A stretch of DNA of 64,000 nucleotides from Patescibacteria group bacterium (GTDB taxonomy: Bacteria; Patescibacteriota; Patescibacteriia; UBA10025; JAHIVO01), in the NCBI GenBank assembly GCA_041660605.1, contig JBAZWB010000003.1:18680-82679 (forward strand), in the 5' to 3' direction. Of this stretch, positions 34,236-35,435 are shown piece by piece. Position 1 is the stretch's first letter; each line of letters starts with the position of its first letter. The position numbers were made by a program, and so were the translations under genes. A model generated the notes under the pieces. It had not been told where the DNA came from, made no database searches, and worked only from the letters and a program-made list of their open reading frames with translations.

Positions 34236-35435
34236 ATGAAACTTGGCAAATCAATAATTATTCTTGGGGGCGATGGGTATTTCGGATGGAGCCTTGGCTT
34301 AGCCATGGCTAACAGGACGAAACAGCATGTCATTCTGGTTGATAATCTGATTAAGCGCCGGTGGGAAAAAGAAATCAAAGTGCGTCCCCTGTTGCCTTAT
34401 CAGCTCCCGGCGCAGAGAATGCGCGCCTACCGAAAATTATTCCATAAATCAAACCTGGCTTTTGAAAAAGCCGATATCGCAGACTATCGCCAGATTGCTC
34501 GATTAATTCATAAGTACCAACCGCGGTGCATCATCAATGCCGCCCAGCAGCCCTCCGCGCCTTTCTCAATGATCGGTCCCGAGCACGCCAAGACGACATT
34601 CACCACGAATATCATCACGAATCTCAACACACTCTGGGCCATCGCTCTGTGCGATAAAAATATTTTCTATCTCAAGCTGGGAACCTCTGGGAGCTATATG
34701 GGGCTTGATCTGGATTATATCCCGAACAACCGGGTGGCGCTGCGGTTTCAGTACCAGGGGAAAACCAGGCGCATACGTAAATCCTGGCTTCCTATGCAGA
34801 CTACGGATTTCTATCATCAATCAAAAATTACCGATTTTGAAATCAGCGAAATGTGCGCCCAATTATGGAATCTGCGCATACTTACTGTCCAGCAATCGAT
34901 CATCTACGGCGCGACTATTCCGGAAAATAAAAAACCAAGCCACCAAAGTCTGGCCACGCGATATAACTATGACGGGGTATTCGGCACGGTAATCAACAGA
35001 TTTATCTGCCAGACAGCCATCGGGCACCCGTTGACCGTCTATGGCACAGGCGAAAATGAAGTAGGGCTGATCAGCCTGCAGGATACCGTCAGCCATTTTC
35101 TGTTATTTAGCAATTTCCGGGTGCCAGCCGGCCGACATGCGGTGGAACATAACTATACCATCCGGCTGCCGATAAAAAAAATCGCGCAGGTCATTGCTGG
35201 CATTGCCCATCGGCCTGTTATCCATTCTGTCCCGCATCCACGCTATGAAAAAAGTCAGAAACTCAGGACAAAAGTAGAGCAAAGCGCCACAGTTGTAATA
35301 AATGCAAAAACCCTCGCTGCCTTTACTAATGAAATGAAAGAACTCTACGAATTTACCCGCCGGTATAAACACGATATTAACGCGAAAATTATCATGCCCC
35401 ATGTCTTTTGGCGGCACAAATATTCGAAGCAATAA
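34236..35435 (+). CDS. sqdB: UDP-sulfoquinovose synthase (SQD1/SqdB-type NAD-dependent epimerase/dehydratase).
   Basis: [37 protein letters not shown] and KIIMPHVFW match SQD1 blocks. About 399 aa. Confidence 0.8.
   Translation: [399 protein letters not shown]

Follow-up and report, generated by a model that had tools for sequence, protein, structure and literature searches.

Does an enzyme that shares the fold and the hallmark sequence blocks of SQD1 also make UDP-sulfoquinovose (UDP-SQ)? This question is raised by a gene at 34236..35435 (+) in a 64,000-nucleotide stretch, here called the window, of a 184,930-bp contig from a metagenome-assembled genome of the Patescibacteria (candidate phyla radiation, CPR). 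The gene is a complete open reading frame (ORF) with an ATG start and a product of 399 residues whose name at NCBI is generic; many members of its clade are called 'UDP-sulfoquinovose synthase' at JGI. An earlier reading of the DNA (the initial annotation) had taken it for such a synthase (SQD1/SqdB) and had proposed that UDP-SQ feeds a surface glycan or glycolipid. The comparisons presented here indicate that the ORF is intact and encodes an NAD+-dependent, SQD1-fold enzyme of nucleotide-sugar metabolism, an extended short-chain dehydrogenase/reductase (SDR) of a sister subfamily of the UDP-SQ synthases that we designate 'NQQP/D', and that, to judge from its sequence, the label 'sulfoquinovose synthase' is not justified. 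In relatives the SDR gene is paired with that of a pyridoxal 5'-phosphate (PLP) enzyme, and we put at roughly 0.55 the probability that the product at C6 of the sugar, or the route to it, is unlike canonical UDP-SQ synthesis.

The resemblance to SQD1 goes well past what chance would give. A phmmer search of the PDB returned Arabidopsis SQD1 as the sole strong match, over the full length of the window protein (E 2e-52), and the next family, dTDP-glucose 4,6-dehydratase, followed at E 1e-5. The best profile was NCBIfam NF041015, 'UDP-sulfoquinovose synthase' (E 2e-73, model positions 2-384 of 384), and an AlphaFold model of the protein (pLDDT 91.2, pTM 0.92) aligned to SQD1 (PDB 1qrr) over 393 columns with TM-scores of 0.89/0.91, versus about 0.61-0.65 (query-normalised) for GalE- and RmlB-type enzymes. 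Both the model and the profile alignments place the SQD1-specific insertions and C-terminal segment in the window protein, so that the outcome of which the initial annotation had warned, a best match to a generic epimerase in a protein lacking the insertions, is not what was found. The ORF and the motif blocks quoted in that annotation are present exactly as described. They include a 28-residue block (34962..35045, +, residues 243-270) and the SQD1-type C-terminal segment IMPHVFW (35391..35411, +, residues 386-392), each conserved in the canonical and the NQQP subfamilies alike. Also intact is GGDGYFGW (34266..34289, +, residues 11-18), the G-xx-G-xx-G NAD+-binding fingerprint (G11, G14, G17) defined for the family in PMC4388408. 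The matched blocks are scaffold that the whole superfamily branch has in common.

The residues that set the proven synthases apart lie elsewhere, in three active-site segments. The sqdBDC operon has a genetically proven role in the synthesis of the sulfolipid SQDG, and the S. meliloti protein used here (CP090106.1; VVHFAEQRAAPYSM / GTMGVYG / GSVYHMTK) is taken to be the sqdB product of this operon, as it scores 443 bits against the canonical hidden Markov model (HMM) and the gene for the family 8 glycosyltransferase (GT8) SqdD follows directly. The plant, archaeal and α-proteobacterial synthases, only about 40-44% identical to one another, have in common H96, E99, R101, T145, M146, S180, Y182, H183 and K186 (SQD1 numbering), and E148 alone varied among the positions compared between H96 and K186. 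The archaeal residues (Agl3) were read from primer sequences and mutants, and residue roles were drawn from a homology model of Agl3 and alanine scanning (PMC4388408). Substitution by alanine of the Agl3 equivalents of His, Arg, Met (M145A), Tyr182 and Lys186 abolished activity, E147A and Y148A left 12-15% (12% for E147A) and T144A remained fully active (PMC4388408).

Five of the nine common positions are altered in the window protein: H96N, E99Q, R101P, M146S and S180D. Three of these changes fall in the 12-residue lid loop (34536..34571, +), which matches H96-FG-E99-Q100-R101-SAPYSM of SQD1 and in which His has become N101, Glu Q104 and Arg P106, so that SQD1 reads VVH96FGE99Q100R101SAPYSM and the window protein IIN101AAQ104Q105P106SAPFSM; the same 14-residue stretch stands where the reference has VVHFGEQRSAPYSM. 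The loop thus does not match the pattern H-x-x-E-Q-R-(S/A)-A-P-Y-S-M common to SQD1, Agl3 and S. meliloti SqdB. In the second segment (TSGSY, 34683..34697, +; SQD1 T145-M146-G-E148-Y149) Met is replaced by S151 and Glu by S153, giving GTSGSY where SQD1 has GTMGEY. In the third (DFYHQSK, 34806..34826, +) Y193, H194 and K197 are kept (SQD1 Y182, H183 and K186) and the equivalent of S180 is D191, giving TDFYHQSK in place of SSFYHLSK; the combination of G-T-M-G-x-Y with Ser180 is therefore absent as well. The catalytic set T150, Y193, H194 and K197 is retained along with the three glycines of the cofactor site.

Profile scores mirror these differences. The window protein scored 247.5 bits against NF041015, whose cutoff is 575, but this cutoff is insufficient as a test of membership, since the validated Arabidopsis SQD1 (485 bits) also falls below it; relative scores and HMMs of the clade and of canonical proteins, built without the query, were used in its place. 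On NF041015 canonical-signature bacterial proteins reached 380-501 bits and the NQQP/D clade 210-272. The window protein scored 584 bits with the clade HMM versus 319 with the canonical one, SQD1 254 versus 640 and S. meliloti SqdB 186 versus 443. Scores for RmlB (TIGR01181, 31 bits, cutoff 365) and GalE (17 bits, cutoff 262) were marginal, and where 4,6-dehydratases carry the catalytic segment T-D-E the window protein has T-S-G.

In a MAFFT alignment of 233 full-length homologues, the roughly 120 nearest (45-53% identity) all bear the signature NQQPS / S-[A/G]-G-[C/S]-Y / D-x-YH-x-SK, to be set against HEQRS / TMGEY / S-YH-SK of SQD1, a canonical signature restricted to remote representatives of this alignment. 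With NQQPS / TSGSY / D-YH-SK, the window protein conforms to the subfamily pattern (N..QQP, [ST]-x-G-x-Y without Met, D-x-Y-H-x-S-K, and a clade HMM score above the canonical one), and a neighbour-joining tree nests it within the clade on a long branch. The clade comprises more than 120 protein clusters and spans Saccharimonadales, Staskawiczbacteria, Falkowbacteria, Paceibacterota, Arthrobacter, Pseudarthrobacter, Paenarthrobacter, Terriglobia and Bdellovibrionia. By these sequence measures the NQQP/D subfamily is a large, coherent and uncharacterised sister clade of the UDP-SQ synthases. Elsewhere in the SQD1 family, five proteins of 715-799 residues (P0159, P0171, P0179, P0181 and P0185) are split by inteins with Hint, Intein_splicing and LAGLIDADG domains. 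An analysis of selection from independent assemblies was abandoned as uninformative because three loci (L001, L002 and L003) proved DNA-identical over 12.8 kb.

The gene neighbourhoods of the relatives also tell the two subfamilies apart. On contigs of Saccharimonadales, Falkowbacteria and Staskawiczbacteria, a gene for a class-V PLP enzyme of about 360 residues, 44-57% identical between lineages, comes after the SDR gene. A scan of genome contigs with the clade alignment, whose patterns also matched canonical sqdB, gave at least four clade loci, and by tblastn the partner was adjacent in 7/7 clade loci from genomes versus 0/76 loci with the canonical signature. A signature-specific DNA pattern (12 residues), run through metagenomes, added 21 loci, 14 of them with sufficient flanks, and in 13 of these the partner lay next to the SDR gene on the same strand or convergently. 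Counting the identical pair L006/L085 once, the partner is present at 19 of 20 informative clade loci (about 17 after removal of near-duplicates). The lone informative exception, L091 (Ga0187861_10019921, 4056 bp), has no PLP partner within 2.4 kb downstream; this second orphan of the clade conforms to the consensus (SAGCY), and its downstream flank is taken up by small membrane proteins and a rubrerythrin-like gene. The partner family numbers 154 proteins at E<=1e-20, and for 42 of 120 listed SDR clusters the longest contig is exactly equal in size to that of a partner cluster. Clustering of the neighbours at 27 clade loci revealed no recurrent gene besides the partner, and neither a glycosyltransferase nor a sulfite-generating gene. 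At two Falkowbacteria-type loci a MurA-like enolpyruvyl transferase (L085 9184-10461, L105 7577-8842; 263 bits, MurA subfamily cutoff 297) is inserted between the SQD1-like gene and that of the PLP partner, and may act on the UDP-sugar as a third component of the system.

What does the partner do? Its best matches are SufS, CsdA and the cystine C-S lyase C-DES, at about 120 bits where the SufS cutoff is 475; EgtE is among its weak NCBIfam matches. The PLP-binding Lys (GGQK) and Asp (VVDGVQ) and the C-terminal carboxylate-binding Arg (RxSF) are retained. A profile alignment to PDB sequences places a 13-residue deletion exactly at the SufS loop 'sGHHCalpvmkklg', and EYPAN replaces EHHxN of SufS, with Tyr for the PLP-stacking His. 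Since the Cys loop of SufS is deleted, the partner would be unable to form an enzyme persulfide, and from its sequence the closer comparison is with activities that need no Cys: a C-S lyase acting on cystine or cysteine S-conjugates, a cysteine-sulfinate desulfinase or a transaminase. A scheme in which the partner passes a persulfide to the Cys of 'SAGCY' in the SDR was considered and disfavoured, both because the partner is without the Cys loop and because many members, the window protein included, have Ser, Val or Thr in place of this Cys.

Of the Cys-independent activities, a transaminase would imply a pathway free of sulfur chemistry, with the SDR releasing a UDP-4-keto(-6-deoxy) sugar that the PLP protein of the relatives converts to a 4-amino sugar. 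Dehydratase-aminotransferase gene pairs are common in sugar pathways, and DegT/ArnB/RfbH-type sugar aminotransferases do appear among the secondary Pfam and NCBIfam matches of the partner. We nevertheless consider an amino-sugar route very improbable: the SufS, CsdA and C-DES matches are far ahead (120 bits versus 36 for ArnB), and the SDR retains the His specific to SQD1 but not the Asp/Glu pair found in 4,6-dehydratases. Moreover, SQD1-type enzymes hold NADH and re-reduce C4 (PMC4388408), which is at odds with release of a 4-keto sugar.

The association with class-V PLP enzymes recurs in a second form. Four representatives of 816-874 residues (P0129, P0133, P0136 and P0138) fuse an SQD1-like domain to a C-terminal Aminotran_5 domain, one of them (P0129) being ANDGO_01679 of the non-photosynthetic jakobid Andalucia godoyi, annotated as 'UDP-sulfoquinovose synthase'. 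The PLP domain of the fusions is 20-23% identical to the stand-alone partner, with Lys, Asp and Arg in register, and their SDR signature is HQQ[C/S]S / S[F/M]GEY / D-YH. The changes common to the fusions and the clade of the window protein are E99->Q, loss of R101, T145->S and S180->D. Two lineages thus combine PLP association with one and the same subset of active-site changes, a correlation that argues, at the level of sequence, for control by the altered residues over how the C6 nucleophile is supplied. CPR bacteria, Micrococcaceae, Terriglobia and Bdellovibrionia encode the SDR and the PLP enzyme separately; in the jakobid protist and other lineages the two are fused.

From the retained SQD1 fold, NAD site, Thr/Tyr/Lys set and His194 we infer that the window enzyme most likely still forms a 4-keto-5,6-ene: it would oxidise C4 of a UDP-hexose, probably UDP-glucose, take H5 and eliminate water across C5-C6 to yield the bound intermediate. 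Agl3 forms this intermediate without sulfite (PMC4388408). Capture of the C6 electrophile would then differ from addition of free sulfite, as suggested jointly by the altered residues, the linkage to the PLP gene and the fused proteins. In the relatives the PLP enzyme, acting as a C-S lyase or desulfinase, would probably supply or process the C6 substituent, with cysteine, cystine or cysteine sulfinate as the donor, and candidate products include UDP-SQ made in some other way, a 6-thio or S-linked intermediate, or a sugar modified differently at C6. More tentatively, and at odds that we place well short of even, the SDR and PLP enzyme may constitute a previously unrecognised route that adds an amino-acid-derived substituent at C6 of a UDP-hexose via the 4-keto-5,6-ene, with the window gene as an orphan offshoot. 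Possible outcomes of such a route are a 6-thio- or S-cysteinyl-quinovose nucleotide, as a thiosugar or as the precursor of a low-molecular-weight thiol, or sulfite-independent sulfoquinovose.

Several points weigh against a departure from canonical synthesis. The change R101->P is shared by certain uncharacterised proteins of the TMGEY type, for example L068 (Hyphomicrobiales) and P0127 (501 bits on NF041015), and the E148 position is Val in S. meliloti SqdB; as both positions vary among TMGEY-type proteins, neither change was kept as a lone diagnostic. The residue roles come from a homology model and alanine scan of Agl3 and not from a structure within the NQQP/D clade, the tree behind the clade placement carries no support values, and compensating changes elsewhere in these sequences could preserve UDP-SQ synthesis. 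The partner, as a Cys-less SufS-like protein, could itself be a cysteine-sulfinate desulfinase that supplies sulfite, in which case the product would be UDP-SQ after all.

Taken to its end, this last point would make the enzyme a genuine UDP-SQ synthase with lineage-specific loops, fed in relatives by a desulfinase where assimilatory sulfate reduction is lacking, and in the window by sulfite from elsewhere, and UDP-SQ would go to a transferase whose gene lies in another part of the genome. SufS/CsdA-type enzymes desulfinate cysteine sulfinate without the catalytic Cys, and a PDB entry named 'cysteine sulfinate desulfinase' (4lw2) is among the matches of the partner; the best profile and structure matches are to SQD1 over the full length, the Tyr/His/Lys set and NAD site are intact, a GalU for UDP-glucose is encoded in the window, and the JGI annotation of clade members agrees. 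Set against this are the changes at five positions common to three validated synthases, three of which gave inactive Agl3 mutants as alanine, and a gap of more than 200 bits on both NF041015 and the canonical HMM. Micrococcaceae, which probably make sulfite by assimilatory sulfate reduction, also have the pair and should not need a dedicated sulfite supplier. No SQ-type glycosyltransferase lies near the 27 clade loci, whereas canonical loci carry them, and the window gene has neither partner nor GT4 or GT8 gene in about 84 kb around it. On balance we regard a genuine synthase as rather unlikely. As to the initial annotation, membership in the SQD1-fold family thus stands, and the specific identity as synthase is not supported, in view of the active-site loops, the clade and the profile scores.

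The contrast with canonical loci also bears on the surface-glycan proposal. In the canonical Actinomycetota set (L008-L083) a GT2 gene occurs in 28 loci, a GtrA-like gene in 26, a PMT-like GT-C/GT2 fusion membrane protein in 18 and a GalE-like SDR in 34, which looks like polyprenyl-phosphate-linked sulfoquinovose surface glycosylation in non-phototrophic Actinobacteria. The arrangement of GT2, GtrA and PMT-like GT-C genes that the initial annotation had imagined therefore does exist, in the other subfamily. In the window, by comparison, the GT-C-like genes lie 15-21 kb from the SDR gene across unrelated genes and no clade member examined is so linked, so that delivery of UDP-SQ to a surface glycan or glycolipid through them finds no footing. 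Part of the underlying observation holds: galU is present (45459..46328, +; TIGR01099 334 bits, cutoff 327), a candidate source of UDP-glucose 10 kb downstream, and four consecutive proteins with 8-9 transmembrane segments are encoded at 50367-56812, of which only the first has a family match (DUF2079). The other three (52352-53971, 53973-55229 and 55238-56812, all -) have no Pfam or NCBIfam match and no detectable similarity to one another. An MptA/GT87/PMT_2-like GT-C protein is encoded just outside the start of the window (L110 7605-9071).

The window gene itself is an orphan, its partner being encoded elsewhere or the enzyme acting alone. No homologue of the partner was found in the 64-kb window or in 10 kb past each edge, where all tblastn matches at E<=10 were at chance level, and no listed partner cluster comes from a 184,930-bp contig. 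Since the partner is present in subclades that diverge below the window protein in the tree (Falkowbacteria type, L007), its loss or relocation at this locus is probably derived. The neighbours named by the initial annotation are indeed there: upstream a PF10706 aminoglycoside-2''-adenylyltransferase (33656-34156; 23.7 bits, cutoff 21), the ANT/Lnu-type nucleotidyltransferase of that annotation, and 18 nt downstream on the same strand msrB (35454..35843, +; SelR/MsrB, 169 bits), which is probably co-transcribed with the SDR gene and occupies the slot where relatives have the PLP partner. Its statement that no sulfolipid glycosyltransferase is adjacent was borne out too, as no GT4- or GT8-type gene stands next to the SDR gene and no transferase of these or of SQ type is encoded in the ~84 kb around it. 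The GT-B genes of this region comprise glycogen synthases and one weak MJ1255-like match (5077-6171, 365 residues; PF13528 21.6 bits, cutoff 25; TIGR00661 MJ1255/VC2487 26.8 bits), the sole GT-B candidate in the window not of glycogen type and 28 kb from the SDR gene. Among the annotated ORFs of the window no sulfite-forming gene was seen, and scans for promoters and terminators around the gene gave sites no more numerous than in shuffled controls.

Could a partnerless copy simply be decaying? The window protein is the most divergent of the close members, with 11 deviations at the 104 columns where conservation among the others reaches 95% or more (median of the others, 0) and a mean identity to the clade of 49% compared with 58% among the other members, and its long branch and missing partner would fit a functionless remnant that has drifted since the partner was lost. 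Against this, the frame is full-length, 93 of the 104 positions are kept and the 11 deviations are conservative without exception, the motifs for cofactor binding and catalysis are retained, the structure model is confident, and the gene is tightly packed within a co-directional run; the other orphan, L091, likewise keeps the consensus signature. A remnant is thus very improbable.

Other genes in and around the window deserve record. A PF02578 gene (YfiH/PgeF-like, 'Cu-oxidase_4') lies near the SQD1-like gene both here (31150-31890) and at two Falkowbacteria-type loci (L085 11562-12386, L105 5652-6476), which may be residual synteny. The window has five lipid-related genes (9605-10090 (-), 30411-31139, 31932-32561, 39190-39438 (-) and 43652-44275), a set unusual for a reduced CPR genome that comprises a PEMT/ICMT-like methyltransferase, a ceramidase/Per1-like membrane hydrolase, a PlsC-type acyltransferase, an acyl carrier protein and a DedA/VTT protein. 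Equally unexpected in a CPR genome is an enzyme of histidine catabolism, a 682-residue urocanase extended at its N-terminus by about 95 residues (6356-8404, -). A 634-residue protein with an N-terminal signal-like segment and no family match (39647-41551) ends in two dockerin-like repeats, GDADGDGSVNIADAVYTVNYIF and DNNNDGMIDISDVVYLVSYIF. Finally, a glycogen/alpha-glucan cluster at 60102-63901 encodes a GH15 and a GH57 glycoside hydrolase and a GT5 glycogen synthase, and beyond the window (L109 11341-18442) follow a second GH57, a second GT5 and a GalT-like gene.

Although itself an orphan, the window gene exposes a widespread mis-annotated subfamily and a two-enzyme system. Homology pipelines of the JGI/KEGG type label the whole clade 'UDP-sulfoquinovose synthase', a mislabel by which the making of sulfoquinovose, a major compound of the organosulfur cycle, and the possession of sulfolipids or sulfated glycans would be attributed in error to CPR bacteria and soil Actinobacteria. 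A simple rule separates true sqdB from the paralogue: the signature H..EQR / TMG.Y / S.YH together with the type of neighbour, glycosyltransferase or PLP enzyme. The paralogue-PLP pair and the fusions further provide a testable lead to new C6 sugar-nucleotide chemistry, for which cultured hosts exist in Arthrobacter sp. YAF16, Paenarthrobacter sp. DKR-5 and Pseudarthrobacter enclensis. A literature search of incomplete coverage returned nothing on the SQD1-like paralogue, its PLP partner or the fusion, and nothing relevant on sulfoquinovose with cysteine desulfurase, CPR bacteria with sulfoquinovose, 6-thio sugars or Andalucia.

How, then, does the system compare with known ones? With SQD1, Agl3 and SqdB the window protein shares the extended-SDR fold, the insertions, the C-terminal segment, GxxGxxG, Thr/Tyr/Lys and the extra His, as well as the YDxxFGTxxNRF and GHPLTVYG blocks common to UDP-SQ synthases, and probably the same 4-keto-5,6-ene intermediate, at an identity of 30% to SQD1 (PDB 1qrr/1i24) and 26% to S. 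meliloti SqdB. It differs from them in its separate clade, the five changed positions, synthase-profile scores that fall short by more than 200 bits, the want of a linked glycosyltransferase and the PLP linkage of its relatives. RmlB and GalE are likewise NAD-dependent extended SDRs that oxidise C4 transiently, but their profiles match marginally, their TM-scores are about 0.61-0.65, the Asp/Glu pair is absent from the window protein and the SQD1 insertions are absent from them. For the SDR-PLP pair we know of no sugar-nucleotide example of an SQD1-like enzyme paired with a C-S lyase. In ergothioneine synthesis an electrophilic intermediate captures cysteine-derived sulfur and the PLP lyase EgtE trims off the amino-acid part, and the pair may be likened to this logic by analogy only. 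The partner of the relatives differs from SufS in the deleted Cys loop (13 residues), in Tyr for His, in being about 40 residues shorter and in its score (120 bits versus a cutoff of 475); with SufS/CsdA and the cystine C-S lyase C-DES it shares the class-V PLP fold and the Lys/Asp/Arg set, and with C-DES it aligns over the full length.

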